NCBI GenBank assembly: GCA_018969615.1
Contig: JAGWYA010000002.1
Location: 3,070-67,069, forward strand
Length of the DNA stretch: 64,000 nucleotides
Origin: Patescibacteria group bacterium
GTDB taxonomy: Bacteria; Patescibacteriota; Minisyncoccia; UBA6257; 02-FULL-45-10c
Reading direction: 5' to 3'
In this document: piece by piece, positions 7,600-33,137 of the stretch
Layout of the letters: each line of letters starts with the position of its first letter
Position numbering within the stretch: the first letter of the stretch is position 1
Notes under the pieces: generated by a model
Databases searched by the model: none
What the model saw: only the letters and a program-made list of their open reading frames with translations
What the model was told of the DNA's origin: nothing
Translations under genes and position numbers: made by a program

Positions 7600-8000
7600 A
7601 AAAAACAAAAGTGTATTTTTTGGAGCATAAGAACCCGAGGATCTAAAAATACACTTTTGTTGCAACTTTAGGCTTATTCCCGCCTACTGCCCACTGCCTA
7701 CGCGCTACTCCCTACTTGGCGAATGGATTCAGAACCCATTTGCGAAATAGTTTCTAGGCGCGTTGCGAGGAAAAATGGAATAGCTCAAGAAGCAACGACG
7801 AGATCGCAGCATGAGCTGCCTCGAGGAGGAGCAACGAAGGGCTATTCCATTTTAACCGCAACCCACAGGGATAGGGTCAATTTTATTTATACCTTCGTTA
7901 CTCGTCAGAAAGGTAGCTACAGCTACGATTTCTTCCTCGCGCCTTACTCTAAATAAAATTGACCACTATCGCGCCAGTAATCTATTTCGCAAATGGGTTC
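7600..8000. repeat. About 400-nt non-coding region with four nested/serial inverted repeats; candidate structured RNA or decayed element
   Basis: Inverted repeats: caaaagtgtatttttt (7606-7621) / aaaaatacacttttg (7645-7659); aaaatggaatagc (7773-7785) / gctattccatttt (7840-7852); gtcaattttattta (7875-7890) / taaataaaattgac (7953-7966); outer pair gaacccatttgcgaaatag (7734-7752) / ctatttcgcaaatgggttc (7982-8000). The last pair overlaps the final codons of the M23 peptidase gene. Confidence 0.5.
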
Positions 8001-8980: not shown

Positions 8981-9098
8981 CGCGGTCGTCCAATCTTTCA
9001 AAAAAGACGCGAGCGTCCTTGCTTTATGGAGTTGTTGACGTAAGATATCAATAATATCGATAGCGTAGCATGTGCCCCGTGCCCGCTCAATACCACCT

Positions 9099-10955: not shown

Positions 10956-11365
10956 GGAAGTATGAATAAGGAATCAGGGAAAATAAGAAACTTTCAGGAC
11001 CTCGATGCATGGAGAGAAGGGCATCTCTTGGTTTTAGAGACCTATAAGGTCACAAAAAAATTCCCCAGGGAAGAAATTTTTGGATTGATAAGTCAGATGC
11101 GGCGGTGCGCGGTATCAATTACTTCTAATATTGCTGAAGGATTCAGTAGGCAGTCCTACAAAGAAAAGTTGCAATTTTATTCAATATCGCAAGGATCGGT
11201 CACTGAACTCCAAAATCAACTGCTTATATCAAAAGATGTGGGCTATATGGACGAAAGTGAATTTCAAAAAATTTCCGAACAGTCGATAAAAGTACATAAG
11301 ATCATAAACGGCCTGATCAGGCATTCTAAGGCCGTAATTCCTAATTCCTAATTCGAAATTCATGA
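10946..11365 (+). mobile_element. About 420-bp AT-rich cassette with imperfect terminal inverted repeats (gaat[a/t]aggaa-type) carrying a four-helix-bundle protein gene; it exactly fills the uvrD-rsmA intergenic space
   Basis: Base composition is visibly lower in GC than both neighbours. The left end contains the uvrD stop codon and the right end abuts the rsmA ATG. Homologous miniature copies lie at 9311-9396 and 37253-37340. Confidence 0.5.
10962..11351 (+). CDS. Four-helix-bundle protein (23S rRNA intervening-sequence protein family / Avd-like, PF05635/TIGR02436-like)
   Basis: 129 aa. SD aaggaag then ATG. Sequence (FQDLDAWREGHLLVLETYKVTKKFPREEIFGLISQMRRCAVSITSNIAEGFSRQSYKEKLQFYSISQGSVTELQNQLLIS) matches the conserved core of this family as I recall it. 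The gene is AT-rich relative to the genome. Confidence 0.7.
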   Translation: MNKESGKIRNFQDLDAWREGHLLVLETYKVTKKFPREEIFGLISQMRRCAVSITSNIAEGFSRQSYKEKLQFYSISQGSVTELQNQLLISKDVGYMDESEFQKISEQSIKVHKIINGLIRHSKAVIPNS

Positions 11366-12183
11366 GCCAATACCTGGGGCAACATTTTCTGAAAAATAAA
11401 ACCGCCGCGCGCAAGATCGTGAACGCGCTTGCCATCAAACCGGGCGATACCGTGATCGAGATCGGCCCGGGCAAAGGAGCGCTGACTGGCGATCTTCATC
11501 GCGCCGTGACGAATGCCAAAGGAAAACTTATCCTTGTCGAGATCGACCGGGATATCGCCGTCACACTTCATGAAAAATATTCATCGGATCCGGTCGTGAA
11601 GATCGTGAACGCCGATGCGCTGACCGCACTGCCTGAGGTCATTGCCGGGCTCGAAGATCGGCCCTACGCCATTATCGGCAATATTCCGTATTACATCACC
11701 GGGAAGCTCCTGCGCACCATCGGCGATCTCCCGCATCTTCCGCAACGCACGGTTCTCATGATCCAAAAAGAAGTTGCGGAACGAGTCTCTGCGCGGCCGC
11801 CTCGCATGAATCTGCTTGCCGCCGCCGTACAGCTGTGGGCTGAACCGAAACTGCTCTTCACGCTCTCTCCGGAGGATTTCGATCCGCCGCCGCAGGTCAA
11901 TTCCGCGGTCATCAGTCTTGGAAACCGCCCGGCGCAAGCCGATGAGCACGATCGTGATGCGTATTACCGCCTGCTCCATATCATCTTCAAGCAGCCGCGG
12001 AAAACCCTTCTCAATAACCTCGCCGAAGGGGCTTCCCAGACAAAATCAGAACTTGAAGAGCTCATCGCACCCCTCGGATACGACCAGAAAACACGCCCCC
12101 AGGAGCTTTCCGTCGACCGGATCAGAACTTTGGCATCACTGTTTAAAGAAAAGGGTATTGAGATCCCCTCTCTCCGTTCATAA
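11362..12183 (+). CDS. rsmA: 16S rRNA (adenine1518/1519-N6)-dimethyltransferase
   Basis: 273 aa; LGQHFL start, SAM-binding VIEIGPGKGALT, conserved NIPY motif (IGNIPYYIT). Confidence 0.9.
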   Translation: MSQYLGQHFLKNKTAARKIVNALAIKPGDTVIEIGPGKGALTGDLHRAVTNAKGKLILVEIDRDIAVTLHEKYSSDPVVKIVNADALTALPEVIAGLEDRPYAIIGNIPYYITGKLLRTIGDLPHLPQRTVLMIQKEVAERVSARPPRMNLLAAAVQLWAEPKLLFTLSPEDFDPPPQVNSAVISLGNRPAQADEHDRDAYYRLLHIIFKQPRKTLLNNLAEGASQTKSELEELIAPLGYDQKTRPQELSVDRIRTLASLFKEKGIEIPSLRS

Positions 12184-12250: not shown

Positions 12251-13084
12251 GTGACAGATGTCGATCTGTGTCAAATCAGCCTTTTTGAGACGCTGATCAC
12301 GTCAATGACAATGGGGAAGGCACTGCTTGCAACAACTATTGTAGGGATCGCCCTCGTCGGCGCAGTCTTTTTGATACAAAAAAACAACGTCCCTACGCCG
12401 GCATCCGATGCGGCACAAACATCAGGAGCGAATAACATCGCCTCTTCTCAACCGTTCGTCGAAAAAGCACCGATCGACCAGCTTGCGGCGCTCACCCCGG
12501 GCACAAACCTGACCCAAGAATTCGGTGACGTTCTTGCGCAAGAGATCAGCAATGGAAATCCGGGTGGGCCTACAAACCTTAATGGACAAAATTCGATCGG
12601 CGTGCCAAACGCAGATACCTTTGCACAAAACCTTATCAGTCAGGCGGTTACAAAGTTCGATCCCTCAAAACTTTCCCCGGTCGTTAATGATTCCGATCTG
12701 CATATTATCCAAGATAACAGCAAGGCTGCGGTTATGAATTATGTCAGCCAACTTCATGCGATTGTCGTCGATGAAGCGCATGCGATTCCTTCTGGAGTTG
12801 TTTCAGATAATCCGACCATTGATCAGGTCACAACGCTCGTGCCGATCTATAAGGATATGCTCACCAAAGTCTTTGCCCTTTCCGTACCAAGTGTCGCTAT
12901 CGACATCCAAAAAAAAGAATTGGAATTGCTTATGAAAAAGGCGTATATTCTTTCGGCGATCGCAAACTATAAGAACGATCCGGTTACCACTATTCTCGTT
13001 TCCCAAGAGCTGGTCACTGTCGATCAAGAATTCAGCGATCTTTCAAATTCCGTAAAGGCGCTTATTCAAAAATATTCAGCATAA
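12251..13084 (+). CDS. Hypothetical membrane-anchored protein (first gene of the T4SS-like cluster)
   Basis: GTG 12251 with SD aaaggag at 12236-12242 (ORF track 11816..13084; the upstream part overlaps rsmA). N-terminal TM (ALLATTIVGIALVGAVFLI), Asn/Gln-rich extracellular region. Confidence 0.5.
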   Translation: MTDVDLCQISLFETLITSMTMGKALLATTIVGIALVGAVFLIQKNNVPTPASDAAQTSGANNIASSQPFVEKAPIDQLAALTPGTNLTQEFGDVLAQEISNGNPGGPTNLNGQNSIGVPNADTFAQNLISQAVTKFDPSKLSPVVNDSDLHIIQDNSKAAVMNYVSQLHAIVVDEAHAIPSGVVSDNPTIDQVTTLVPIYKDMLTKVFALSVPSVAIDIQKKELELLMKKAYILSAIANYKNDPVTTILVSQELVTVDQEFSDLSNSVKALIQKYSA

Positions 13085-13087
13085 AAC

Positions 13088-14665
13088 ATGCGCTATAAGA
13101 ATATACAAAAGATTATTGCGGGAATCCTTATAGGAACACTATTCTTCCCTCAATTAAGCGCTCTTCAGGCGCCGGCACCAAAAGCTCACGCTGTCTTGGG
13201 CGTAGGCGATATTACATTTACTGATGTGATCATGGACCCGACCACGCTTCTCTATTATTCAGATATGGTGACGGCCACTGATCTCAACTCCAGCGCAAAT
13301 ACAGCTTCATGGGCAACAAAAATATTAGAACTTGCAAAACAGGTCGCCTATGCCGCTTTCAAAGCCGCGATCCTCGATCAACTCGTGCAGGCGCTTATTA
13401 ATTGGATAAACAATGACGGCAAAGGACCGATCATCGCCGATTGGAATCAATTCTTCTATAATGCCGAAAATAACGCTGCGGGCGCGTTCATTGACGGACT
13501 TTCCGGAGGTGTCCTTTGTTCGCCATTCAACCTCCAGGTCCAACTTTCACTTGCGCCGGTACAGAATTTTAGCGATGTCACCTGTACGCTTAATCAAGTG
13601 ATCGGCAATATTGATAGCTTTATAAGCGACTTCCGCAATGGAAGCTGGCTTGCCTATCAGCAGATCTGGGACCCTCAAAATAACTTCTATGGTGCGGCCA
13701 TGATCGCCCAAGATGATCTGTTGAAACAAGAGTATAGCGCCGTCAATACATCACAAACCGAAGGAATAGCCGGACAAGGGTTCCTGTCCTTTACAAAATG
13801 CGATTATACGCCAGATCCTAACGGATCATATGTGCAAGTAGGAGGAAATTACATTCTTGCAAGTACTAATAATGCCAGCTCTCGATATTCAAAATCATGT
13901 CACGTTACCACGCCAGCTCAGGTCGCCGTTGAAGCGACAAAACAAGCACTGGTTGATGTCGGGATCGGGAATATTATAAACTCGCAGGATCTTTCCGCAT
14001 ATCTTACGGCGATCTTCAATGCGGCGATCAATCGATTGAAAGTAGCGGCAGCGAACGGTTTAGTTGGCCTTCTTTCGGACGCAACGCAAGGGGTGCATGT
14101 CAATCCGGTCTTCCCCTGTGCCGGAATTACCGGGCAGGCGTTTACCGCATGCATGCAATCGGTCAACTCTGAAAAGAATCTGGCGACAAGCTATCAGGAT
14201 CAGAGCAACACACTGGTTACCAGCGTGCTTGATGTTCGCCAGCAGATCAATGATACGCTTACCCAGGCGATCGCCCTCGAATCGCCGTATGTCGATGCGC
14301 TTACTCAGCTTTCAGCATGCCAGGCAAGCGCTACCGCAACACTCGCGACCGAACAGGGAATTCTCAATTCGCTCCAAGATTCACTGTCAACAAACCAAAC
14401 TTATCTTGATACCCTCAACGGTCTTTCAACGCCGATCGTCACTGCAACCAGTTCAAGCGTAACCGCGGATGATCTGGCAAAGATAAGCGCCATAGCCTCA
14501 GCTGCGACCGCAGCCGCAAATAATATCGGCGACGCTAACGCCGCTCTTCAAGATGCGAAAAACCAGCTCCAAACGATCCAAGCGAACGTCTCGGCGAATC
14601 TCCCGGGGATCCAAGCCCAGCTTCTCTCCTGCCCGGTCATAAGCGCAACAAGTACAACGCCTTAA
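13088..14665 (+). CDS. Large secreted hypothetical protein (signal peptide; Ala/Asn/Gln/Thr-rich)
   Basis: 525 aa; signal peptide MRYKNIQKIIAGILIGTLFFPQLSALQAPAPKAHA; no catalytic motif recognised. Confidence 0.5.
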   Translation: MRYKNIQKIIAGILIGTLFFPQLSALQAPAPKAHAVLGVGDITFTDVIMDPTTLLYYSDMVTATDLNSSANTASWATKILELAKQVAYAAFKAAILDQLVQALINWINNDGKGPIIADWNQFFYNAENNAAGAFIDGLSGGVLCSPFNLQVQLSLAPVQNFSDVTCTLNQVIGNIDSFISDFRNGSWLAYQQIWDPQNNFYGAAMIAQDDLLKQEYSAVNTSQTEGIAGQGFLSFTKCDYTPDPNGSYVQVGGNYILASTNNASSRYSKSCHVTTPAQVAVEATKQALVDVGIGNIINSQDLSAYLTAIFNAAINRLKVAAANGLVGLLSDATQGVHVNPVFPCAGITGQAFTACMQSVNSEKNLATSYQDQSNTLVTSVLDVRQQINDTLTQAIALESPYVDALTQLSACQASATATLATEQGILNSLQDSLSTNQTYLDTLNGLSTPIVTATSSSVTADDLAKISAIASAATAAANNIGDANAALQDAKNQLQTIQANVSANLPGIQAQLLSCPVISATSTTP

Positions 14666-14682
14666 AAGACTAACTTCAACCC

Positions 14683-16707
14683 ATGAATCGCGATCGATCC
14701 TCAAAATATCTTCTTCTCCTTACCGGCGCGCTATTCGTTGGATTAACGCCGTATGCACATGCTGCGAGCGTGGCAACGGCCGTTGGAACCCTGATCGGTG
14801 GAGTTACGTTGGGCGCTGTCCTGCTTCCGATGTCTCTTACGGCGTATCTTTTCGGATACATCGCAAGCTGGTTCGTTACGATCGGCGGCACGCTGACCAA
14901 TTGGTCGCTTGATCTTAACAGCCAGTTATTAAATAGTCCGATCGTTCAAACTGGATGGGTCGCATCCCGCGATCTTGCCAACCTTGGTTTTGTCCTTGCG
15001 ATCATTCTAATTGCTTTCGTTACGATCGTGCGCTATGAATCCTATGATTCAAAGAAAATGCTGGTCCGCCTTATCAGCGCAGCTCTTCTCGTTAATTTCA
15101 GCCTCGTCATTGCTGGCGTCTTCATTGATTTCACCGGTATTACCACAAATTTCTTCCTCAGTAATGCAACAAGTGGAGACCTCACGTCCGTGGGACAAGA
15201 ACTTACCAGCGCCTTTAGAGCACAAACGCTTTTTCAGCAAAACAACAGTGAATCGACGATCCAAAACTATGTGCAGGGCTTGTCGAACGATGTAAATAAA
15301 AAGATTGTCTTCCTTGCAACGGAAACATTCGTCGGCGTCTTTACCAGCCTGACCGCGATCTCTCTTCTTACGATAGCGGCAATGCTTTATATTCGCTATA
15401 TTGCGCTTACGATCCTGCTGATCCTTGCACCGCTTGCGTGGCTGATGTGGATCTGGCCTGATCTTGAGCGGTATTGGCATGAATGGTGGAGCTCATTCAT
15501 GAAATGGGCGTTCTTCGCTCCGGCGGTTTCATTCTTTATCTATCTTGCGATCAAGATAGCAACTGATTATGCCTCTAAAACTCCAAGCGCTATTGCAATT
15601 CCGGTCACAGGAACTGACTCGCTTGTTAACCTTGTTCAAAACTTCGGTTCGATCTTTGGACAAATGCTTGCGGTTCTCGGGATCCTCTATGGCGGACTTT
15701 ATGCCGCGAACCGGATGGGTATCGCCGGAGCCGGATTCGGTATCGCTATGGCAGGGAAAGTAAAGGGATATGTGACCGGAGCGCCTGCAGTTGCCGGGGG
15801 ATATGTCATGGGTGGTCATGGAGTCGGCGGATTAATGAATCGCGCAAGCACCGCAGTGACCGGAAAAACAGTCACTGAAAATCTGAGAGGGGTCACTGGA
15901 AATAGGCTCTTGCAAAGCATCCCGGTCGTTCGAACTGCGATGCAAGAAGCGAACAAGAACCTTGGCGCATTCGATGAGAAACGCATTGATGATCTTATGA
16001 AGCATTACAATTCCCTTGATCGAGAGACTCGGGCAAATTCCGGCGTAGGTGGTTTTGCCGATCCGGTTGAGCGCGCTGCATGGATGGCATCGATGGCGAA
16101 GAATAATCAGTTAAAAGATGCTAAGACGAAACTTGGTGAATCTCGTTATGACAGCATTGCGCAAGAGACTCTAAAAGTGGGCGGGCGGACTATTTCAAAA
16201 GAACTCCTTTCGCGCGATCCAGAACTTGCGCGCTTCAAGGTTGATCCTGGAGCGAGCGAGTGGAAAGGAAAGAGTTCTTCAGAAATTCGCGCTGCTCAAA
16301 AGCTTGAAGTGGCAAAGGCCTATAAAGATATTGCACAGGAAGCGGTTGAAAATATTTCTGCAGCTCAATTCGTAGAAAATCCGGAAAACCTTGCCCAGAT
16401 CCGCACTTCTTTCCTCGTTGCGTTCGGCGAGAAGCGAAGTCATGAAGATAAGGAGCTTATGATGTCCAAGTTAGGCGATCAGATCAAAAACCTTCAATCG
16501 AATGTTACAACTTTGTCGAGCGAACAGCGCGGTCTCTTAAACAATCTTTCGGCAAAATTAAACTTTATGGCAAAGAGCCCCTCATGGACTCCGTATGTAA
16601 CCCAGGATCTTTTACCGTTCCTTAAAAAAGGAGTTCGCAGAACGCTCGAGGGGATCGTAGAAGAGGAGGAAGAGACAAAAAATACTAAAGAAAATACTGA
16701 GAAATAG
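14683..16707 (+). CDS. Polytopic membrane protein, VirB6/TrbL-like (T4SS inner-membrane component) candidate
   Basis: 674 aa; signal peptide followed by at least six hydrophobic helices and a long hydrophilic C-terminal tail; located just upstream of PrgI-like and VirB4 genes, as in Gram-positive T4SS loci. Confidence 0.4.
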   Translation: MNRDRSSKYLLLLTGALFVGLTPYAHAASVATAVGTLIGGVTLGAVLLPMSLTAYLFGYIASWFVTIGGTLTNWSLDLNSQLLNSPIVQTGWVASRDLANLGFVLAIILIAFVTIVRYESYDSKKMLVRLISAALLVNFSLVIAGVFIDFTGITTNFFLSNATSGDLTSVGQELTSAFRAQTLFQQNNSESTIQNYVQGLSNDVNKKIVFLATETFVGVFTSLTAISLLTIAAMLYIRYIALTILLILAPLAWLMWIWPDLERYWHEWWSSFMKWAFFAPAVSFFIYLAIKIATDYASKTPSAIAIPVTGTDSLVNLVQNFGSIFGQMLAVLGILYGGLYAANRMGIAGAGFGIAMAGKVKGYVTGAPAVAGGYVMGGHGVGGLMNRASTAVTGKTVTENLRGVTGNRLLQSIPVVRTAMQEANKNLGAFDEKRIDDLMKHYNSLDRETRANSGVGGFADPVERAAWMASMAKNNQLKDAKTKLGESRYDSIAQETLKVGGRTISKELLSRDPELARFKVDPGASEWKGKSSSEIRAAQKLEVAKAYKDIAQEAVENISAAQFVENPENLAQIRTSFLVAFGEKRSHEDKELMMSKLGDQIKNLQSNVTTLSSEQRGLLNNLSAKLNFMAKSPSWTPYVTQDLLPFLKKGVRRTLEGIVEEEEETKNTKENTEK

Positions 16708-16710
16708 CAT

Positions 16711-17808
16711 ATGAATCCCTCTGAATCAAAAACGTTCCAGGAAAAGTTCTCTTTACTTCCCGATAAGATCAAAGAATGGCTTTCTTCAGAAGAGCTGGTC
16801 TATATCATCGGCGATATTGAGACCAAGCTTGGTTTGAGCGACGAAAAAGTACTTGTCATTCCAAGTCTTATCTTGCGCCTTGTGGTACAAGACATTGAAC
16901 CGCAGGATTTCACCAATACGCTTTCCCAGGAACTTGGCGTTTCTTCATTGATCGCAAAAACGATCGCTGAAGAGGTTGAAAAAAATGCATTGCGTCCGAT
17001 CGAGGGGGAGTTGCGTTCAAAGACCGGAATTGAAACAAAGCTTATCTACCATCCTCGTGCAGCAGAAAAAGAAGAGGCTCCAAGACCATCAGTGGCCACA
17101 GCTAAGACCGCAGAGGGTCCGGCATCACTCCCTCAGGAAACTCCGCGTCCGGCAGTTCAGGCAGCATCTCAGCCGAAGCCAGTCATGCCAGCAACCCCTT
17201 CTCCGCGCCCGATCTCGCCGCTCACCTTCACCGCCGGTCCGCAAAAAGAAATAAAACTTCCGGAACCTCCGAAGATGCCGTCTTCGGGAACTCCACAGAC
17301 AAAACCGGCGGCGCCAAGCCAGCCGATCCCGCCCGTTTCTCCTATACCATCCAGGATGCCGACCGCGGCACCAAAACCACAGCCGATTCAGCGGCCTATG
17401 CCGTCTCCTGCGGTAGAGCCGCAACCCGCAGCAGCGCCATTTATACTCCATCAGGAGGCAAGTCCGACCGTCGCGCCGTCGATCGCTCCGCAGCAACATA
17501 TAACCTCTGCGCCGAAACAAAGCCTGACCATGAAGATACAGAATTACTACCAATCCATGGGAACGGCCGAGCGTCCGATCTCAAAACCTGTCTCGGTCCA
17601 AACAGAGATCCCAATCGCGCCGCGCGCTTCAACGCCCCCTGCCGCACCGGACATAAAGCCGACTCCCCAAACCGAACAGGCGCGCGTCGTTCATTATAGC
17701 TCGTTCCGAACTCCGATAACTCCGGAAGGAACGACAAAGATCGAGCCGAAAGCACCAACGCCAAAAGCACCGAATCAGAACGTAGTTGATCTCAGAAAAT
17801 TCATGTAG
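16711..17808 (+). CDS. Hypothetical Pro-rich protein
   Basis: 365 aa; a structured N-terminal roughly 100 aa followed by a long PxxP-rich low-complexity region. Confidence 0.45.
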   Translation: MNPSESKTFQEKFSLLPDKIKEWLSSEELVYIIGDIETKLGLSDEKVLVIPSLILRLVVQDIEPQDFTNTLSQELGVSSLIAKTIAEEVEKNALRPIEGELRSKTGIETKLIYHPRAAEKEEAPRPSVATAKTAEGPASLPQETPRPAVQAASQPKPVMPATPSPRPISPLTFTAGPQKEIKLPEPPKMPSSGTPQTKPAAPSQPIPPVSPIPSRMPTAAPKPQPIQRPMPSPAVEPQPAAAPFILHQEASPTVAPSIAPQQHITSAPKQSLTMKIQNYYQSMGTAERPISKPVSVQTEIPIAPRASTPPAAPDIKPTPQTEQARVVHYSSFRTPITPEGTTKIEPKAPTPKAPNQNVVDLRKFM

Positions 17809-17817
17809 GCGTTTGCC

Positions 17818-18327
17818 ATGCAATTCCAGGTCCCTCAATTCATTGAAACAGAAGATAAGATCGTCGGACCGCTGACCCTGACCCAATTCCTGTATGTTGC
17901 GGCGGGCGGCGGGGTCTGCTTTATTCTCTTCTTCTTCCTTCAGACCCCGCTCTGGATCTTTTTTGTGCTTCTGATCATGCCGGCATCCGTTTCGCTTGCT
18001 TTCGTGAAGATCAACGGGCGCTCGCTTCCGGTCGTACTCCTTGCGGCGCTCGGCTACTACTGGAAACCGCGGTTTTATATTTGGCAGCGCGAAGAAGAAG
18101 CGGTTCCGACCATGCAGCTTCCTAAAATAGGCACGGGGGGTAGCACGCGTTCATTGCTTGATTCTCTGGTCGATCAGTTAAAAACAAGCAAGAACCCGAT
18201 CCCGAAACGCGAAAAAGCGATCGCACCGGCCATCACCGACCGCGTCAAAAGCAGCAAAGAACGATTTGAAACGCTCCGGAAGATCACAGGGGAGGCTGAA
18301 ACAGCCCGCCGCGTTGATTACCGATAG
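17818..18327 (+). CDS. PrgI/VirB3-like small membrane protein of T4SS
   Basis: 169 aa; N-terminus MQFQVPQFIETEDKIVGPLTLTQFLYVAAGG followed by two TM helices and ...KPRFYIW, resembling the PrgI family; placed immediately upstream of VirB4, as prgI-prgJ. Confidence 0.5.
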   Translation: MQFQVPQFIETEDKIVGPLTLTQFLYVAAGGGVCFILFFFLQTPLWIFFVLLIMPASVSLAFVKINGRSLPVVLLAALGYYWKPRFYIWQREEEAVPTMQLPKIGTGGSTRSLLDSLVDQLKTSKNPIPKREKAIAPAITDRVKSSKERFETLRKITGEAETARRVDYR

Positions 18328-18375
18328 GAATATTTCGTTTCATACTTTTCGCGTTTCCCTTTATACTAATAACGT

Positions 18376-19041
18376 ATGGCAAAGTCCCAAGAATCACTGC
18401 CGACGCAGCAATTCATCGGCATCGAATCGATCGATGCCGGCGTCGTAAAGCTCAAAGGCGGCGCGCTCCGCAAGGTTCTTTTAGTGTCCGGGATCAACTT
18501 TTCCTTGAAATCCGAGGAGGAGCAGGGACTTATCACGTATGCCTTTCAGGGATTCCTGAACTCGCTTAATTTTTCAGTACAGGTCTTTGTTCATTCGCGG
18601 AAATTAAATGTTGAGGAGTATTTGCAGAAGTTCGGCGAGCGCGAACAGCAGGAACCGAACCAGCTTCTGAAAAACCTGATCGTTGAATACCGGGAATTCA
18701 TCAAATCGTTCGTCTCTCAAAATGCGATCATGCAAAAAACGTTCTTCGTGATCGTCCCATATGATCCGGTCGGTCTTTCGAAAACCGGAGCGGGCATCGC
18801 CGATACGGTCCTTGGATTTTTCAAGCCGAAAACAGCCCAAGCCCCCGCAGCAAAACCGGAAGATGCCGCCGAGACCTTAGAACAATTGGATCAGCGCGTT
18901 GACCGTGTCGTCAGCGGCTTGAATCAAGTGGGTTTGCGCGCCGTCCCGCTGGATACCGATGAGCTCCTTGAGCTGTTCTACAATCTCTATAATCCGACCA
19001 CGACCGAGAAAAAAGGCATTGAATTCACCGAAAAGAAATAA
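18376..19041 (+). CDS. VirB4/TraE-family N-terminal domain encoded as a separate ORF (split or frameshifted virB4, part 1)
   Basis: 221 aa. IGIESIDAGVVKLKGGALRKVLLVSGINFSLKSEEEQ resembles the N-terminal domain of Gram-positive VirB4 (PrgJ/TcpF-like). It stops at TAA 19039-19041, two nt before the ATG of the ATPase ORF in the +1 frame. Confidence 0.55.
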   Translation: MAKSQESLPTQQFIGIESIDAGVVKLKGGALRKVLLVSGINFSLKSEEEQGLITYAFQGFLNSLNFSVQVFVHSRKLNVEEYLQKFGEREQQEPNQLLKNLIVEYREFIKSFVSQNAIMQKTFFVIVPYDPVGLSKTGAGIADTVLGFFKPKTAQAPAAKPEDAAETLEQLDQRVDRVVSGLNQVGLRAVPLDTDELLELFYNLYNPTTTEKKGIEFTEKK

Positions 19042-19042
19042 T

Positions 19043-20755
19043 ATGGACAAGAACGTTACGAACATCATCGCCCCGGCGGCGATCCAAGTCGATCCGAACT
19101 ACCTGAAGGTAGGGGATAAATACACGAAAACGATGTTCATCTTTACCTATCCGCGCTATCTGACCACCGGCTGGTTCTCAGGGATCATTGATATGCCTGA
19201 ACTGCTCGATATTTCCATCTTCATTCATCCCGTCGAAACGACTCTCGCGCTCAAAAAACTCCGCCGGAAAGCGGCACAGGTTGAATCCCAGGTGATGGAA
19301 CGCCAGCAAAAGGGGCAAGTGCGCGATCCGATGCTTGAGACCGCCTATCAGGATATCGAATCGCTCCGCGATTCGCTTCAACAGACCCGCGAAAACCTTT
19401 TCAATGTCGGCGTCTATTTGACGATCTATGCGGATACAGTTGAAGCGCTCCATAAAATAGAAGGTAAGATCACTTCGCTCCTCGAAAGCCGCCTTGTCTA
19501 CGTAAAACCGGCGCTCTTCCAGCAGATCGAAGGGTTCGAGTCAACGCTTCCGCTCGGACAGGATAAGCTTGGCGTCTATAATCCGCTCAATTCCGGGCCG
19601 CTCTCTTCGATCTTTCCGTTCACCTCGGCCGATCTTACCTCGAACAGCGGGATTATGTACGGCATCAACCGCCATAATAACACCCTGATCATCTTCGACC
19701 GCTTCTCGCTGGAAAATGCGAATATGGTGATCTTTGCAAAGTCCGGCAGCGGTAAATCCTACGCGACCAAGCTCGAGATCATCCGCCTTCTAATGCTCGG
19801 CACGGATGTCCTGGTGATCGACCCGGAGAACGAATACGAGAACCTCGCCTCGGCGGTCGGCGGAAGCTATTTCCGCATCTCGCTTGCCTCGGAACACCAC
19901 ATTAATCCGTTCGATCTTCCGGTCGTTCCGCCGGACGAAGATCCGTCCGATGTTCTCCGCTCCCATATTGTGAACCTCGCCGGCCTTCTCAAGATCATGC
20001 TTGGGCAGATCACCTCTGAAGAAGACGCGCTTCTTGATCGCGCATTGGGCGAAACCTACGCTTCCCACGATATCGTTGCCGGCAAAGACTTCACGAACGC
20101 AACGCCGCCGCTTTTGGAAGATCTTCAAAAGATCCTTCAAAACATGGAGGGCGGTCGGGGACTCGCGGAGCGCCTCTATAAATTCACCTCGGGAAGTTAC
20201 GCCGGCTTTACGAACCAGCCGACGAACATCGATATTAAGAACCGTCTGATCGTATTCTCGATCCGCGATCTTGAGGACGAGCTCCGGCCGATCGCCATGT
20301 ATATCGTCCTCAACTTCATCTGGAGCCTGATTCGCGCCACGCTCAAAAAACGCGTGCTGGTCATCGATGAGGCATGGGTCATTATGAAACACGACGACGG
20401 CGCGACCTTCCTCTTCGGTCTCGTAAAGCGCTGCCGCAAATATTTCATGGGCGTCACGACGATCACCCAAGACGTTGAAGACTTCTTAAAATCACCGTAC
20501 GGGCGGCCGATCATAACCAACTCATCGCTCCAATTGCTTTTGAAGCAGGCCCCGGCATCCATGGACGTCATCACGAAAACCTTCAACCTGACCGAAGGCG
20601 AAAAAGACCTTCTTCTCCAGGCGAGCGTAGGCGAGGGGCTCTTCTTTGCAGGCCTCAATCATGTTGCGATCCAGATCATCCCGTCCTATTTGGAGGATAA
20701 GATCGTTACTACAAAACCGGAACAGATCCTCGAGCAGAAATCTACGCTCGAATAA
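19043..20755 (+). CDS. virB4: VirB4/TrbE/CagE-family T4SS ATPase, C-terminal ATPase domain (part 2)
   Basis: 570 aa; Walker A AKSGSGKSYATK, Walker B VLVIDEAWVIM, and the typical ITQDVEDF C-terminal region. Confidence 0.8.
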   Translation: MDKNVTNIIAPAAIQVDPNYLKVGDKYTKTMFIFTYPRYLTTGWFSGIIDMPELLDISIFIHPVETTLALKKLRRKAAQVESQVMERQQKGQVRDPMLETAYQDIESLRDSLQQTRENLFNVGVYLTIYADTVEALHKIEGKITSLLESRLVYVKPALFQQIEGFESTLPLGQDKLGVYNPLNSGPLSSIFPFTSADLTSNSGIMYGINRHNNTLIIFDRFSLENANMVIFAKSGSGKSYATKLEIIRLLMLGTDVLVIDPENEYENLASAVGGSYFRISLASEHHINPFDLPVVPPDEDPSDVLRSHIVNLAGLLKIMLGQITSEEDALLDRALGETYASHDIVAGKDFTNATPPLLEDLQKILQNMEGGRGLAERLYKFTSGSYAGFTNQPTNIDIKNRLIVFSIRDLEDELRPIAMYIVLNFIWSLIRATLKKRVLVIDEAWVIMKHDDGATFLFGLVKRCRKYFMGVTTITQDVEDFLKSPYGRPIITNSSLQLLLKQAPASMDVITKTFNLTEGEKDLLLQASVGEGLFFAGLNHVAIQIIPSYLEDKIVTTKPEQILEQKSTLE

Positions 20756-20759
20756 CCCC

Positions 20760-21128
20760 ATGAATAAAAATGCAAAGATAGGCATTATTGATGCGATCAT
20801 TATGACACTGCTTTGCATCAGTGCAGATGCCGCCCAGATCATTGCTGATCTCAGTATCGCTATTCCAGTTGTCGGTGAGGTACTGCCATTAGCTGCATGG
20901 GCGTATGGGCTTGCCATTTCCGGTATTGTACTTTTTTGGCTTATAATGAAAGGAGTGAGCACGAAGTGGTTCCTTGGGGGAGCGGGTATCGATCTTATAC
21001 CTTTTGTAAATATCTTACCGGGAACTACCGCAGCGATCATTGCAACGATCATCGAGGATAATCTTCCTGAGAAGACAAAAGCAGTGACATCCCTTGTATC
21101 AAAAGCGGTCAATCCATTGGAAAAATAA
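20760..21128 (+). CDS. Small hydrophobic membrane protein (122 aa), possible pilin-like/T4SS subunit
   Basis: ATG 20760 directly after virB4; two long hydrophobic stretches; no signal-peptidase motif recognised. Confidence 0.4.
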   Translation: MNKNAKIGIIDAIIMTLLCISADAAQIIADLSIAIPVVGEVLPLAAWAYGLAISGIVLFWLIMKGVSTKWFLGGAGIDLIPFVNILPGTTAAIIATIIEDNLPEKTKAVTSLVSKAVNPLEK

Positions 21129-21877
21129 TGACGATCATGAGAACTCATACTAAAACCGGATCATTCGCCGCCCATCATCGACTGGCATGGTTTTCGGCTA
21201 TTTTACTGCCTACTGCCTACTGCCTCCTTGCTCTGACAGCAAACGCACAAACCGCTCCCGAGTTCATGGTTAGTTGGAAGGCCCTCGACTATGTTCCTGC
21301 GGACTATATCGGAAAAACATTGCCGACTCAAACGACGCAAGTCGAAGCGGCATTTGATGTGATCGATCAAGGAAAGATCGTCGATGTTTCAAAGAATATG
21401 ATAAATTGGTATGACAACAATGCCCTTATCGCCGCAGGGATAGGATTAAAGACGTTCAAGTTAACCCCCAGCAGCACGCAAAGCGACACCATCCGGATTG
21501 CGGTCTCGAATTATAATGCCAATGGGGATATCTCCACCTCATTTTTGGTCCCGATCGTGAAGCCTGAAGTGGCTGTCAGCGTACCGACACCGACCGCAAA
21601 TCTTTATCGGAACCGCACCGCTCTTGCACCTCAGCCCTATCTCCTTGAAGCCCGGCCTTTCTTTTTCAATGCGACCTCACTCTCCGGACTTACATTCTCT
21701 TGGCAGGTAAACAATACATCACCAACAGGGAATCCGGGAAATCCCAATTTTCTAACGCTTGATCTCTCTTCTCAAGGAACCCCTCAAGAAACCGATATTA
21801 CGCTTTCAGCCGGAGTGACTAATACCGGTAACCAACTCGAACTTGGCAGTCGCATGCTTAATCTTATCGTACAATAA
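21128..21877 (+). CDS. Secreted hypothetical protein; the signal-peptide coding region contains a (TACTGCC)x3 heptanucleotide repeat
   Basis: 249 aa; start overlaps the previous stop (taATG); signal peptide AILLPTAYCLLALTANAQT; heptamer tandem repeat at 21205-21228. Confidence 0.5.
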   Translation: MTIMRTHTKTGSFAAHHRLAWFSAILLPTAYCLLALTANAQTAPEFMVSWKALDYVPADYIGKTLPTQTTQVEAAFDVIDQGKIVDVSKNMINWYDNNALIAAGIGLKTFKLTPSSTQSDTIRIAVSNYNANGDISTSFLVPIVKPEVAVSVPTPTANLYRNRTALAPQPYLLEARPFFFNATSLSGLTFSWQVNNTSPTGNPGNPNFLTLDLSSQGTPQETDITLSAGVTNTGNQLELGSRMLNLIVQ

Positions 21878-21885
21878 CCATACAT

Positions 21886-23022
21886 ATGATCCATTATTCC
21901 TTTTCCGGTATCCCTAAAAAAGTCGCGATCTCTTTTTTAGTTGCATTCCTTTCAGTATCACTGGCTGGTCTTGCTGCGGCTCAACAATATGTGCCGCCGA
22001 TCAGTGGAGGGCAATGTCCCGCCGGTTCGATCCCGGCAGGAACATATTCTGATGGCACGCCCCGATGCCAAGTTCAATCGACAACCCCTGCCGCATCCAC
22101 AGCCAATACCTCAACCTCTCAGTCGGGGGACATTGTTCCTACAACACTTGGTCTCACGCCCTCGGGCCTTGTTGGTGTAACTTGTCCAAATGGATATACC
22201 GTGAACTATGACCTATCTGGGAATGGCGGGCAGATCTGCTTGAAGAACGGCGCGCCGACTCCATCAGGTTATCAGGTCCAATCAAGTACCGATACCGTGA
22301 AAGGCACGCCTGTCAGCTCTTCCACTGCAGCAGCCTTTAATCCTTCCTTAGCGCCTACGACTATTTCTCAGCATGTCGATTCTTATGCGGTTAAATACAC
22401 TATCCCATGCCAACCGACTGCCGGAGGAACGTGTCCCGCCGAAAGTAATTCATCGCCTGCAGCGTATATCGTCCGCCTCTATCAATTCGGTCTGATGATC
22501 GTCGGCCTCCTCGCGTTTGGCGCGATCGTCTATGGAGCATTGAAGTATATTCTCTCCGCGGGGAACATGGCCGATCAGTCCGATGCAAAAGATCAGATCA
22601 CCCAGGCGCTCTGGGGCGTTGTCCTCCTTCTTGGCGCCTATACGCTTCTTTATACGATCAATCCGCGGCTCGTCAGTTTAAGTAATCCGGAGATCGTTCC
22701 TCTGAACGTCTCGGCACTTCAATCACCGTCAGGGAATGGAACGCCGGGAAGTCAGATCCCGACCGCTGCCGGTCCAGGAGGCGATCCGCTTTGCAAGTTA
22801 TATGTGAATTCGGGTATTAACATAAACCTCTCAACCTCAGCAGGAAATCTTGGTGGAACTCCTCAAGGCTGCATCCAGTGTGTATCAAACGCATCAGTAT
22901 CAGGCGGCACATGCCAATGTGATACTGGATATACAACCACTGCAGGAACAGATAATAATACTTGTGTTCCGCTTCCGGCTAAAGGACCCAATAGTCCGAA
23001 ATTAACAGCCCCACTTCAATAA
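21886..23022 (+). CDS. Secreted Cys-rich protein with an internal pair of hydrophobic helices (VirB2/TrbC-pilin-like hairpin)
   Basis: 378 aa; signal peptide; many Cys in both N- and C-terminal thirds; central FGLMIVGLLAFGAIVYGALKYIL - loop - LWGVVLLLGAYTLLYTINP. Confidence 0.4.
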   Translation: MIHYSFSGIPKKVAISFLVAFLSVSLAGLAAAQQYVPPISGGQCPAGSIPAGTYSDGTPRCQVQSTTPAASTANTSTSQSGDIVPTTLGLTPSGLVGVTCPNGYTVNYDLSGNGGQICLKNGAPTPSGYQVQSSTDTVKGTPVSSSTAAAFNPSLAPTTISQHVDSYAVKYTIPCQPTAGGTCPAESNSSPAAYIVRLYQFGLMIVGLLAFGAIVYGALKYILSAGNMADQSDAKDQITQALWGVVLLLGAYTLLYTINPRLVSLSNPEIVPLNVSALQSPSGNGTPGSQIPTAAGPGGDPLCKLYVNSGININLSTSAGNLGGTPQGCIQCVSNASVSGGTCQCDTGYTTTAGTDNNTCVPLPAKGPNSPKLTAPLQ

Positions 23023-23065
23023 CAAACCCCCTCTGACATGACTGAGCATTTGAACATAACTCACT

Positions 23066-24148
23066 ATGAACTGGCTTAAACTTATAAAATATCTGGTCAT
23101 TATCCTCATCATTGTGGGGATCGTCTGGTTAGTGCGCTTCTTCTTTTTCTCAACGCCGGCAGGCCAAAATATTTTGAGCGCACTTCTCCCGCAACAGGCG
23201 GCGCAGCCGGTTGCCACTTCGACCGCGCAACAACTCAACGCACTGACCTCGGAACCGATCTTCGATTACTGGGTCAGTACGAGCACGAATGCCGTCTTTT
23301 ATGCGACCGAAACGGGGCAGATCATGAAGCTCGCCAATGCGCAAACAATGCCGGTTACATCCCAGACCATCACGCGGCTTCATTCCATTGCCGGATCATA
23401 TGATGGCGCATACGCCGTTGCCGAGTTCAATTATCCGTCCCTTCCGCTTTTCAGCGTCCTGACCACCGCGAATAAAACCTGGCAGCCACTGCCGGTCGGC
23501 ACGATCGCCGCCGCGTGGTCGCCTGACAAAGATCAGCTGGCCTACCTCAGCAGTACGGCATTGAATATCCTGGATATGGCCACGAATAAGACTACTCAGG
23601 TCATGCCGCTGACCCAGGAAGAACTGGCTATGACATGGGTGACCGATTCGAAGATCGTTTTGAGCACGCTGCCGACCGCCCAACTGAATACCGAGACCTG
23701 GACCATCGATCCGGTGAAGAAAACGATCACGTCGTCCCTGGAGGCCCCGGGGACCGTCACAAACTGGTCGCCGGACGGAACGATGGGCATCATGCTGACC
23801 AACACCAATAATGCTCCGGTTACGAGCCTCATCGATCCGAACCAAAACCAGCTCTCCCAGTTCTCCTTCGTCACGATGCCGGAGAAGTGCGCGTTCGACG
23901 GAACTAAGATCTACTGCGCGATCCCCAAAAACATTCCAACCCAGGCAACGCTTCCGGATGACTTCTACAAAAAATCGGTTTACTTCGATGATGCGATCTA
24001 TCTGATCGATCTTTCCTCGGGCGGATTCACGCAGGCGCAGACCGGCTCGGCAAACCCGATCGATGCGACCCATTTGGAAGTCCAGGGCTCGGCGCTGCTC
24101 TTCATCAACCGCCTCGACAACAAGCTGTACTCGCTGACACTGCAGTAG
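23066..24148 (+). CDS. TolB-like/PD40 beta-propeller repeat protein, membrane-anchored
   Basis: 360 aa; N-terminal TM; repeated WSPDKDQLAY / WSPDGTMGIM motifs typical of PD40 repeats. Confidence 0.5.
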   Translation: MNWLKLIKYLVIILIIVGIVWLVRFFFFSTPAGQNILSALLPQQAAQPVATSTAQQLNALTSEPIFDYWVSTSTNAVFYATETGQIMKLANAQTMPVTSQTITRLHSIAGSYDGAYAVAEFNYPSLPLFSVLTTANKTWQPLPVGTIAAAWSPDKDQLAYLSSTALNILDMATNKTTQVMPLTQEELAMTWVTDSKIVLSTLPTAQLNTETWTIDPVKKTITSSLEAPGTVTNWSPDGTMGIMLTNTNNAPVTSLIDPNQNQLSQFSFVTMPEKCAFDGTKIYCAIPKNIPTQATLPDDFYKKSVYFDDAIYLIDLSSGGFTQAQTGSANPIDATHLEVQGSALLFINRLDNKLYSLTLQ

Positions 24149-24323
24149 AATTTTTCCGCTCGTGAGGGCAGAGGAACTTATTTTGGGAACGTAAGAATTT
24201 CAATGTTCTCAAAAGAAGTTCCTCTGCCTTATAGCCTTTCACATATAAAAGTACCGCATCATTTTCTAAGTATTGAAATACTTACACTTAGAAAGTGATA
24301 CGGTGCTTTTTATAACTACTTAA

Positions 24324-24366
24324 GAAAATACTCTCCGACTTCTATTGGAGAGTATTTTCTTTTTTA
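24324..24366 (+). terminator. Terminator hairpin (gaaaatactctcc / ggagagtattttc + TTTTTT), third of three consecutive hairpins in 24167-24366
   Basis: Perfect 13-bp stem with T-run; the jag stop codon (24364-24366) abuts it. Confidence 0.6.
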
Positions 24367-25516: not shown

Positions 25517-25846
25517 TTACCGGGCGATGCCGCGGACCGCTGCTGCGACCGATCGGGTAAGATCGTGCGCATCGGTGCGGGATGCTGCGGCGTTCACAAT
25601 GAAAAGAAGATCGGAACGGGAGAGAAGCTTCGGGGCGTGCATCTCCCGCAAGGCATTAAAGAAGATACGGCGGAGGCGCGTGCGGTCGGATGCTTTTTTC
25701 ACGGTCCCTTTTTTAAGAACAACGCCAAAACGGGCATAGGGGAACGGGCTCGGGAACACTTTAACTGAAAATTCGGGGAAGGGGATCGTGCGGCCTCGCA
25801 TGTCCCGGGTTGACTGGATCGGAAGACGGTATTTCTTTGCCAGCAT
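25517..25846 (-). CDS. rnpA: Ribonuclease P protein component
   Basis: 109 aa basic protein with KKYRL start, RTRLRRIF motif, and position downstream of rpmH. Confidence 0.8.
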   Translation of the reverse strand: MLAKKYRLPIQSTRDMRGRTIPFPEFSVKVFPSPFPYARFGVVLKKGTVKKASDRTRLRRIFFNALREMHAPKLLSRSDLLFIVNAAASRTDAHDLTRSVAAAVRGIAR

Positions 25847-25886
25847 AGATACGCGAATCGCGGGACATGCCCGCGAATTGCTTTAC

Positions 25887-26021
25887 TTAGACCGTCAACC
25901 GATGACGCCCCTTATGACGGCGCGCCGTCAGTACTCGGCGCCCTCCCTTCGTCCTGTTCCGGCGAAGGAAACCATGCGTCCGGGCCCGTTTTCGCTTTTT
26001 AGGTTGATATGTTTGCGACAT
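25887..26021 (-). CDS. rpmH: 50S ribosomal protein L34
   Basis: 44 aa [44 protein letters not shown]; the ORF track extends to 26225, but the canonical L34 starts at the ATG whose complement is CAT at 26019-26021. Confidence 0.9.
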
Positions 26022-26217
26022 GAAACCAGTATATACTATCGTTTCAGGCGAGGCAAGCAAGGAATTCGCTCCGCTGCACGGCCATTTTTTGCGATCCGAC
26101 AGGCATTGCATGGCATACCAGCGCACGTTTGATACAAAATGGCAAATTACTATGGACAAACGATCTGCGTCTCGGTCATACTGATAAAAAATACACCCGT
26201 TGCTGATGCAAAAACAG

Positions 26218-26226
26218 TTATCCACA
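26218..26226 (+). promoter_or_regulatory. Perfect DnaA box TTATCCACA in the rpmH-dnaA intergenic region (candidate oriC/dnaA promoter element)
   Basis: Exact 9-mer consensus; nearby AT-rich tract taaaatgaatatatatttt at about 26280-26300. Confidence 0.6.
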
Positions 26227-26392
26227 AGGCATCAACAGATTATTATCTTTTCACTGTTTCCTTCTGCGGCGCATCCGTTTAAAATGAATATATATTTTCG
26301 GTGTGTTTCTCCGGTACTTCTTAAAAATCATTTTTCAGTCCGTTGAAGTAAGGCAACGGGCGGTGGGAGAGTAATCATTTTATTTTTTTATC

Positions 26393-27760: not shown

Positions 27761-27762
27761 GG

Positions 27763-27853
27763 TGGGGATAAGGGATAGGATAGTCTCTGTATAAATATGA
27801 ACGTTCACACTGCATATAAAAATTATCCGAAGATCTTCAGAGGGTTATCCACA
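27763..27853 (+). promoter_or_regulatory. Candidate oriC in the dnaA-dnaN spacer: DnaA boxes TGGGGATAA (27763-27771, reverse orientation, 1 mismatch), TTATCCGAA (27823-27831) and perfect TTATCCACA (27845-27853), plus an AT-rich stretch
   Basis: Boxes read directly from the sequence; AT-rich segment tgtataaatatgaacgttcacactgcatataaaaatta between them. Confidence 0.55.
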
Positions 27854-27959
27854 AGAAATCAGCGGAAAGAAAAACTCTTTTTTCGTTATTCCGTCTGGCT
27901 TCTCCGGTTTTCTCCCCTGTATTAACATCCCCTATTACCTCTTCTAATTCTTTATCTAT

Positions 27960-33034: not shown

Positions 33035-33137
33035 ATATAGTCAGTATATAAAAAAATAGATTTCACGCCAGGGCAGCCGCATATGCTATCCACAAGATTC
33101 CTTGTGTAATGGCCCATGCGGGAGTATTTTTAAGGTA

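Follow-up and report, generated by a model that had tools for sequence, protein, structure and literature searches.

Our analysis of a 64-kb stretch of DNA (the window) from the MAG of an uncultured bacterium revealed eleven closely packed open reading frames on the plus strand at positions 12251-24148, located downstream of rsmA and closed by terminator-like hairpins. All eleven are present at the positions listed in an earlier note made from the sequence, which had read them as one co-directional cluster. The intergenic gaps within the cluster are -1 to 48 nt, and the spacing between rsmA and the cluster is 67 nt. Two starts received small corrections: g1 starts with GTG at 12251, with an AGGAG Shine-Dalgarno sequence upstream, and the small hydrophobic gene g8 starts with ATG at 20760. 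Three stem-loops, assigned to neither strand, occupy 24167..24361, where g11 and jag end facing each other; two are followed by T runs, and the inverted repeats of the region include I1, with arms of 24 nt, and I9, with perfect arms of 15 nt. They are probably the end of the transcription unit. Promoter and terminator consensus scans within the cluster gave hits at or near the chance level.

The cluster lies in an origin-proximal setting. The GC skew switches sign at approximately 27 kb, and perfect DnaA boxes are found on either side of dnaA. A LysM-M23 peptidase gene is located 3 kb upstream of the cluster on the opposite strand, the DNA repair and recombination genes uvrD, ruvABC, and radC are nearby, and pilB, which the earlier note had placed outside the cluster, was located at 33102-34820. 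The remaining ORFs of the window are housekeeping genes only.

Four genes form the translocon core. The g3 gene (14683..16707) encodes a polytopic membrane protein that is VirB6/TrbL-like over approximately residues 1-365 and ends in a cytoplasmic domain of helical repeats. When the PDB was searched by sequence only, g3 gave coiled-coil noise or no match; the link to VirB6 was therefore made through Pfam annotation of the orthologs and fold comparison, which upheld the VirB6-like call of the earlier note. The TrbL_3 assignments were taken from precomputed annotation, and the local Pfam copy misses TrbL_3 in the proteins so tabulated. Profiles of g3 and g8 gave no signal against the CD1112 VirB6 and the small post-VirB4 ORF of the Clostridium botulinum plasmid, both single-sequence targets. 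The g5 gene (17818..18327) encodes a PrgI/VirB3-like membrane protein with two hydrophobic segments, as had been proposed; it scored 38.5 bits against PF12666, above the Pfam cut-off of 27, and was found in 73 of 80 related loci. In known systems, PrgI/VirB3 is the membrane anchor of VirB4.

The remaining two core genes encode VirB4. The g6 gene (18376..19041) is TrsD-like and represents the N-terminal VirB4 domain as a separate gene, with N-terminal matches to NF045975, NF045971, and NF041427 (TrsD) and an ortholog carrying the TraC-like PF26593. The g7 gene (19043..20755) starts 1 nt past the g6 stop codon and encodes the VirB4 ATPase with its central and P-loop domains. The VirB4 call was borne out, since g7 passed the CD1110-family model NF045971 (381.7 bits, cut-off 325) with intact Walker A (GSGKS) and Walker B (VLVIDEA) motifs; it also scored 95.6 bits against PF19044, and its identity is 61-90% across 80 species-level loci.

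The earlier note described VirB4 as being in two pieces. The two ORFs are real, but they are better described as a conserved TrsD and VirB4 pair than as a broken gene. Aligned with a fused 780-aa VirB4, the g6 product shows 67% identity over residues 5-216; over residues 215-778 of the fused homolog, the g7 product shows 81%. The split point lies within a variable linker. In 73 of 75 related loci, g6 is separate from virB4; among the relatives, the g6/g7 junction is an ATGA overlap in 11 cases and a gap of 1-10 nt in many. A frameshifted pseudogene was ruled out, since the g7 start follows the g6 stop by 1 nt, the relatives are split likewise, and no residues are lost. Judged from these sequence comparisons, g6 and g7 are an intact, natural gene pair.

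At the distal end of the cluster, g10 (21886..23022) encodes a 378-aa protein containing a VirB2/TrbC-type T4SS pilin hairpin at residues ~190-270, flanked by Cys-rich outer domains of ~160 aa at the N-terminus and ~105 aa at the C-terminus. The protein contains 12 Cys, and residues 185-272 alone scored 27.1 bits against PF18895 (cut-off 26.6), in agreement with the earlier description of a Cys-rich protein with a pilin-like helical hairpin. PF18895 was matched by 42 of 43 orthologs and PF04956 (TrbC/VirB2) by 7; the orthologs are 123-594 aa long, and the hairpin is their only conserved part. In the window, g10 is the sole gene of its pilin type. The last gene, g11 (23066..24148), encodes a membrane-anchored TolB-like beta-propeller with a hydrophobic segment at residues 10-28. 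Its Pfam beta-propeller match is weak; the ortholog profile matched TolB propellers in the PDB (E = 1e-6 to 1e-3), as expected from the earlier TolB-like call, and g11 was found in 63-64 of 80 loci.

The five other proteins are orphans. The g1 product (12251..13084; 277 aa) has a single N-terminal membrane anchor at residues 24-42 and a mostly helical outer domain; it had no match in Pfam, NCBIfam, or PDB-profile searches, and its rapidly diverging orthologs occupy the equivalent position in 23-29 of 80 related loci. The g2 product (13088..14665) is a 525-aa secreted protein with a signal-peptide-like N-terminus, an N-terminal domain that contains Cys, and a helical bundle at the C-terminus; of its 8 Cys, C144 and C166 are invariant. 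None of its homologs has a Pfam domain, and Foldseek gave no significant fold match, only generic helical bundles with E > 0.08. The coiled-coil-like C-terminus matched the PDB profile 8qox_B, a “conserved membrane protein”, with E = 6.5e-5. The place of g2 directly before virB6 recalls virB5, and g2 might be a VirB5-like tip protein; its AF2 model is poor (pLDDT 60) and confident only for helices at residues ~350-515.

The g4 product (16711..17808; 365 aa) has no membrane segment and a conserved N-terminal domain of ~100 aa. It was claimed to be Pro-rich, and the measured proline content is 16.7%; Pfam and NCBIfam searches gave no family match, and the gene lies between those for VirB6 and PrgI in 26-30 of 80 loci. 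The g8 product (20760..21128) is a 122-aa hydrophobic protein with approximately three membrane segments, a conserved IP..N.LP motif, and no family match in profile searches. As a second VirB2-like pilin it was rejected, given these searches and an hhalign probability of 0.2% against the hairpin profile. The g9 product (21128..21877) is a 249-aa secreted protein with a signal-peptide-like N-terminus and four invariant Trp residues, W50, W94, and W192 among them, and is conserved in 58-62 of 80 loci. Pfam and PDB searches gave no match for g9 and no VirB8-like signal for either g1 or g9, and no cluster protein matched a VirB8-like (NTF2 fold) protein or a VirB1-like wall hydrolase in profile searches. 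The membrane-anchored and secreted proteins have hydrophobic N-termini, as had been claimed. Having no detectable relatives of known function, g1, g2, g4, g8, and g9 can be given roles only as guesses.

The earlier note found no coupling protein or relaxase in the window, and family searches of all window ORFs likewise detected no VirD4/coupling protein, relaxase, or integrase. No flanking direct (att-like) repeats were found at the cluster, and the sole tRNA of the window lies 28 kb away, with none at the borders. The order rsmA-cluster-jag/yidC/rnpA-dnaA-dnaN is kept across ~50 species-level Paceibacteria genomes: dnaA follows virB4 at a distance of 5.7-10.1 kb in 51 of the 54 loci having enough flank, and rsmA is upstream in 43 of 51. 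VirB4 identity exceeded DnaA identity in all 53 comparable loci (median 66% vs 61%). The fixed origin-side gene order, the conservation of VirB4 beyond that of DnaA, and the lack of mobility genes in the window indicate that the cluster is a vertically inherited core locus under strong constraint, not a mobile element. An integrated conjugative element was rejected on the hallmarks missing from the window (integrase, att-like repeats, and border tRNA) and on the position and conservation across genomes. Both of the outcomes that the earlier note had regarded as fatal to its proposal failed to appear: the VirB6 and PrgI assignments were upheld, and no complete conjugative element spans the locus in the window.

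Among the best 120 of >8000 VirB4 homologs, all those with a named source are from Patescibacteria, as are the 80 fetched loci, with identities of 61-100%. Among plasmid-borne VirB4s, the nearest, with 29-35% identity, belong to the CD1110 family and come from Bacillota and Actinomycetota. Judged by similarity (61-100% vs <=35% to plasmid VirB4s), this VirB4 would belong to the Patescibacteria clade nested in MPF-FATA. A Patescibacteria T4SS has been described with TrsD, PrgI, VirB6, and VirB2-like pilins, without relaxases, and in proximity to dnaA/ksgA/rnpA (Quinonero-Coronel 2025, PMC12102498), and the homologous cluster SEML1_0006-0019 of Southlakia epibionticum is essential for epibiotic growth (Wang 2023, PMC10633639); both sets of findings have been reviewed (PMC12857230). 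The module is not new: it is most likely the Patescibacteria T4SS of PMC10633639 and PMC12102498, including the position near dnaA/ksgA/rnpA.

The present cluster and the described Patescibacteria T4SS share VirB4 with a separate TrsD-like gene, PrgI/VirB3, a PF18895 VirB2-like pilin, a VirB6 whose C-terminal domain is large and helical, and the lack of a relaxase or coupling protein inside the cluster. The chromosomal site near dnaA/dnaN/rnpA/ksgA matches the reported Paceibacteria pattern, and the core order VirB6-x-PrgI-TrsD-VirB4 of S. epibionticum is the order found here. However, the present cluster has a single long pilin (378 aa, Cys-rich on both sides) instead of an array of ~six short pilins, lacks peptidase/lysozyme genes after virB4 and a recognised NTF2-like (VirB8-type) protein, and contains the extra conserved genes g1, g2, g9, and TolB-like g11.

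Comparison with the MPF-FATA conjugative systems (CTn2/CD1110, pCF10 Prg, and pGO1/pSK41 Trs) showed both likeness and distance. VirB4 passes the CD1110 cut-off, and PrgI is upstream of VirB4 in both. The Gram-positive-type gene order that had been proposed holds, since the order VirB6-PrgI-x-VirB4-small ORF is also found in the CD1110-type plasmid pCDC3875 of C. botulinum; the split into TrsD and a VirB4-like ATPase is shared with the pGO1 subclass (PMC12102498). On the other hand, VirB4 is only 29-35% identical to its counterparts in these systems, the cluster has no VirD4-like coupling protein, relaxase, or SLT/CHAP wall hydrolase, it is chromosomally fixed beside oriC rather than carried on a mobile element, and it contains a VirB2-type pilin, which is absent from Gram-positive systems (PMC12857230). 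With the MPF-T systems R388 Trw and Agrobacterium VirB, the cluster shares the VirB2/TrbC-type pilin hairpin (PF04956 in the 7 orthologs), VirB3, and VirB4, but it lacks the outer-membrane core (VirB7/9/10), VirB11, VirD4, and a recognisable VirB5.

We consider it likely that the locus is a chromosomal Patescibacteria T4SS of the Paceibacteria-type arrangement, derived from MPF-FATA conjugation and no longer part of a mobile element. It comprises VirB6-like g3, PrgI/VirB3-like g5, the two-chain VirB4 (g6 and g7), one VirB2-type pilin (g10), and six envelope/accessory proteins. From what is known of the T4SS family, a VirB4 hexamer would be held at the membrane by VirB3 and TrsD; VirB4 would supply the energy for pulling the g10 hairpin out of the membrane and for building from it, with VirB6 as the platform, a filament on the cell surface or a conduit. 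Because the hairpin of a VirB2-type filament has its two ends on the outer face, the variable Cys-rich domains at either end of g10 would be displayed externally and might touch the host. The g1, g2, g9, and TolB-like g11 proteins may form the wall-spanning or host-contact part. By analogy with S. epibionticum, a distant relative, the machine may serve host-dependent growth without DNA conjugation, through protein export to the host or import of material from it. Its presumed essentiality is carried over from Saccharimonadia, which are another class and have a pilin array instead of one long pilin; in the present loci, a requirement of this kind is supported by conservation, VirB4 being more conserved than DnaA in 53 of 53. 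Such a T4SS would be necessary for life on the host.

A further-reaching reading, which we offer tentatively and regard as rather unlikely, is that Paceibacteria have rebuilt an ancestral conjugation machine as an essential origin-proximal host-interface organelle with a pilin-adhesin filament, a conduit importing host material, and a lineage-specific wall part. The filament subunit would be a VirB2 hairpin with large, fast-evolving Cys-rich outer domains at both ends, g1, g2, g9, and TolB-like g11 would replace VirB8, VirB1, and VirB5 in the wall-spanning part, and the “decorated conduit” would take in material of the host instead of sending DNA out. This reading draws only on gene content, conservation, and predicted topology.

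The earlier note had offered DNA uptake or host attachment as the function. Helicobacter ComB and archaeal Ced are VirB4-containing DNA-import machines, and the cluster might in the same way bring host DNA or nucleotides into a cell unable to make them. The lack of a relaxase or coupling protein in the window fits such a role, as do the nearby uvrD, ruvABC, and radC and the co-localisation of comF, recG, and radA with the T4SS in the ABY1 class (PMC12102498). However, the repair genes here are ordinary origin-proximal housekeeping genes, and although VirB4 weakly matches CedB (NF041017, E = 9e-10), its 37.8 bits are far under the cut-off of 700, while the conjugative-type CD1110 model is passed; the CedD model gave 20.9 bits (cut-off 600), and searches for the DNA-import partner families CedA and ComB2-10 detected none. 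In S. epibionticum, competence requires type IV pili and ComEC, and deletion of comEC stops transformation but leaves the cells viable, so that competence is dispensable whereas the T4SS is essential (PMC10633639; PMC12857230). DNA uptake is thus the weaker of the two proposals, and we regard it as improbable.

Still less probable is a machine that only builds an adhesive surface filament for host attachment and transports nothing. VirB4 alone suffices as the energy source of pilus biogenesis in known T4SSs such as the VirB/Trw systems, the pilin hairpin of g10 is conserved and the Cys-rich outer domains attached to it are hypervariable, and the cluster has no substrate-recruiting coupling protein. 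Nevertheless, type IV pili are already available for attachment, with pilB in the window, and Saccharibacteria adhere via type IV pili (PMC10633639). In addition, the very strong conservation of VirB4 and the size of the cytoplasmic domain on VirB6 may point to more than filament assembly.

That the cluster is the transfer module or remnant of an integrated conjugative element, mobilising DNA with a relaxase and coupling protein encoded elsewhere, is the least credible reading: all recognisable components are homologous to Gram-positive conjugation proteins and the cluster has a slightly reduced GC content (0.46-0.53; flanks, 0.52-0.60), but the mobility genes and border features missing from the window, the identical rsmA-dnaA position, and the conservation of VirB4 argue against it, as does the presence of relaxases in only 103 of 3,035 Patescibacteria genomes (PMC12102498). 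A coupling protein or relaxase may lie outside the window; VirD4-like genes are reported in most Patescibacteria genomes, usually far from virB4 (PMC12102498).

The locus yields no new principle; it is a clean, complete example of the Paceibacteria arrangement, and our study documents that the split VirB4 and the oriC-side position are stable over ~50 species-level genomes. Much of the uncultured diversity of bacteria belongs to Patescibacteria, which seemingly live attached to other microbes. The T4SS is among the few machines that they all keep, and it is essential in the one species tested. The conserved, unexplained partners found here, namely g1, g2, g4, g8, g9, the TolB-like g11, and the long pilin, are subjects for mechanistic work on this machine.

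The cluster consisted of eleven co-directional + strand ORFs (g1 to g11, 12251-24148) in an operon-like layout, with internal gaps of -1 to 48 nt, beginning 67 nt downstream of rsmA (11362-12183, +). Upstream on the same strand were uvrD, a 23S-rRNA-IVP-type four-helix-bundle gene and rsmA, and three stem-loops (24167-24361) lay between the cluster end and the convergent jag-yidC-rnpA genes. With adjusted starts, g1 begins at a GTG preceded by an AGGAG Shine-Dalgarno sequence, and the small hydrophobic gene g8 at the ATG at 20760. Hydropathy revealed a single N-terminal anchor in g1 and in g11, signal-peptide-like N-termini in g2, g9 and g10, and a polytopic g3; g4 contained 16.7% proline and no membrane segment, and g10 contained 12 cysteines. 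The eleven-gene co-directional cluster that an earlier note had read from the sequence was thus present, and hydropathy matched its protein descriptions.

Our analysis revealed that g5 scored above the Pfam PrgI cut-off (38.5 bits vs 27) and that g7, whose Walker A and Walker B motifs are intact, scored above that of the NCBIfam CD1110 family of VirB4-like conjugal ATPases (381.7 bits vs 325), in agreement with the PrgI/VirB3-like and VirB4 assignments made previously. Only TrsD and the N-terminal region of VirB4 models were matched by g6, and the g6/g7 junction reads TAA-T-ATG. In a fused 780-aa homolog, residues 5-216 corresponded to g6 (67% identity) and residues 215-778 to g7 (81% identity) with no residues lost, and the two-gene form was found in 73 of 75 related genomes. 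These results rule out a lesion: the earlier note was right that there are two ORFs, and its VirB4 “in two pieces” is a normal TrsD and VirB4 pair. In many relatives trsD and virB4 were separated by 1-10 nt, and 11 trsD/virB4 junctions were ATGA overlaps, the pattern that translational coupling predicts. In four of the fetched loci around virB4, this junction was the exact site of an intergenic, palindromic element bounded by ATCCCGTTAGA...TCTAACGGGAT, with arm pairs approximately 100 nt apart and the right arm extending into the virB4 start codon (L003, 9881-9987; L036, 9842-9963; L053, 9842-9960; L059, 9688-9963). The L059 copy (322 nt) contained a GIY-YIG-like ORF by eye. Further copies occurred in 13 of 82 loci, L003 having 12 arms in 21.7 kb, and the element was absent from the window.

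The VirB6-like protein g3 itself had no Pfam match; TrbL/VirB6 (PF04610) was matched by 2 of 19 orthologs (best E = 6e-6), and most homologs carried PF19590, named TrbL_3 in the database. Each of the six best PDB matches (Foldseek) of its AlphaFold model, built from 73 homologs (pLDDT 84), was a chain of the R388 VirB5-VirB6 stalk complex. The C-terminal ~300 residues of g3 form a helical-repeat domain, and the VirB6 of Southlakia epibionticum listed by Wang et al. likewise has a helical C-terminal domain. When scanned alone, the g10 hairpin (residues ~190-270) exceeded the cut-off of PF18895 (T4SS_pilin), which 42 of 43 orthologs matched, with 7 also matching TrbC/VirB2. Conservation among these orthologs (123 to 594 aa) was confined to the hairpin, between unrelated flanking domains. 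The window had no pilin gene besides g10, and the pilin was single-copy in 61 of 66 loci. Searched against the PDB, the g11 ortholog profile matched beta-propellers of TolB (E = 1e-6). The VirB6-like protein, the pilin-like hairpin in a Cys-rich protein and the TolB-like propeller, all proposed from the sequence alone, were thus supported. No relatives of known function were detected for g1, g2, g4, g8 and g9; the g2 model was poor apart from a C-terminal helical bundle and gave no fold match, and kinship of g8 with the pilin hairpin was ruled out.

Gene order varied locally. The TolB-like gene was 5' of the pilin gene (g9-g11-g10, not g9-g10-g11) in L025, L026, L027, L047, L049, L050, L052, L053, L057 and L059, some of these genomes being labelled Jorgensenbacteria or Paceibacterota. 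The 129-aa 23S_rRNA_IVP-family gene between uvrD and rsmA (10962-11351, +) had homologs between prgI and trsD in L081 (6788-7168) and just 5' of prgI in L009 (~8446), L022 (~7636) and L039 (~8102), and appears to be a small gene relocating within the T4SS neighbourhood. A LysM and Peptidase_M23 protein encoded 3 kb 5' of the cluster on the opposite strand (7982-9289, -) might take the place of the VirB1-type wall hydrolase not recognised in the cluster; such domains were found in some VirB1-like hits (PMC12102498). Its ORF as listed has a TTG start overlapping uvrD and is probably too long.

The remaining window ORFs were all housekeeping genes: pnp, comM-like, uvrD, rsmA, jag, yidC, rnpA, dnaA, dnaN, PBP, ruvABC, yebC, pilB, tsaE, polA, uvrB, Mur ligase, RNase J-like genes, clpB-like, polX and radC. 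As previously noted, no ORF of the 64-kb window encoded a VirD4/TcpA coupling protein or a relaxase; nor was an integrase found there. The sole tRNA was at 52156, and no direct repeats bracketing the cluster were found. The window also includes the region of the chromosomal replication origin. The rnpA-dnaA-dnaN region spans 25517-29069 (rnpA on -; dnaA, 26393-27760; dnaN, 27960-29069), cumulative GC skew turns at ~27 kb, and two of the window's three perfect DnaA boxes (TTATCCACA), at 26218 and 27845, lie on either side of dnaA; the overall number of DnaA boxes in the window is not above chance. The skew turn and these boxes place the cluster ~2 kb from the origin region. Elsewhere, pilB, encoding a type IV pilus ATPase (33102-34820, +), lay by itself, flanked by yebC/ruvC and ruvB and without adjoining pilC, pilM or pilin genes. 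DNA polymerase I occupied two + strand ORFs overlapping by 4 nt, a 5'-3' exonuclease (37324-38211, 295 aa) and a family-A polymerase domain (38208-39659, 483 aa). The YebC/TACO1-family ORF (32507-33034, -) encoded only 175 aa, and its match to the Pfam second/third-domain model ended at position 56 of 160, suggesting that yebC may be truncated or frameshifted.

The VirB4 piece g7 had >8000 database homologs, and among the best 120 all those with a source name were Patescibacteria (71-100% identity). Searching a single genome for each species gave 451 relatives, and the 80 best were retrieved together with 10 kb of DNA on either side. Throughout these loci the order rsmA-g1...g11-(jag, yidC, rnpA)-dnaA-dnaN recurred. 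Of 54 loci whose flank was long enough, 51 had dnaA downstream of virB4 at a distance of 5.7-10.1 kb, and rsmA was upstream in 43 of 51. VirB4 identity exceeded DnaA identity in all 53 loci having both (median 66% vs 61%), and the envelope proteins diverge fast (25-43%). The fixed position between rsmA and dnaA and the conservation of VirB4 above DnaA are characteristic of a core locus that is inherited vertically under strong constraint, not of a mobile element.

A T4SS of this kind is already described. The Patescibacteria VirB4 clade is monophyletic and nested in MPF-FATA in a survey of 3,035 genomes (Quinonero-Coronel et al. 2025, PMC12102498), where TrsD is the most abundant partner, PrgI/VirB3, VirB6 and PF18895/VirB2-like pilins occur near virB4, and the Paceibacteria cluster is near dnaA, dnaN, rnpA, ksgA and rpmH. 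In S. epibionticum, epibiotic growth requires the T4SS cluster SEML1_0006-0019, which is similar to Gram-positive conjugative systems and includes an array of pilins, and in which neither a coupling protein nor a relaxase could be recognised (Wang et al. 2023, PMC10633639).

The earlier note suggested DNA uptake or host attachment. Of these, DNA import is the less well supported and seems unlikely; comEC is dispensable and the T4SS essential (2025 review, PMC12857230). Adhesion only we consider distinctly improbable. A conjugative remnant is the least credible of the three. The nearest plasmid VirB4s, of the CD1110 family in Bacillota and Actinomycetota, share 29-35% identity with g7, and a C. 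botulinum plasmid (VirD4-x-VirB6-PrgI-x-VirB4-small ORF-SLT hydrolase) shares the core order, but its conjugation-specific parts are missing from the window cluster, and relaxases occur in only 103 of the 3,035 genomes (PMC12102498).

By analogy with established T4SS biology, VirB3 and TrsD would anchor VirB4 as a hexamer at the membrane, and VirB4 would drive extraction of the g10 hairpin and its polymerisation on the VirB6 platform. In VirB2-type filaments the hairpin termini point outward, and the variable Cys-rich domains of g10 would therefore coat the filament; g1, g2, g9 and g11 would make a wall-spanning or contact part. The earlier interpretation was supported, with the natural VirB4 split, the lesser standing of DNA uptake and the prior publication of such systems as corrections. 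From genetics in a distant relative, we infer that the cluster would serve host-dependent growth, not conjugation.
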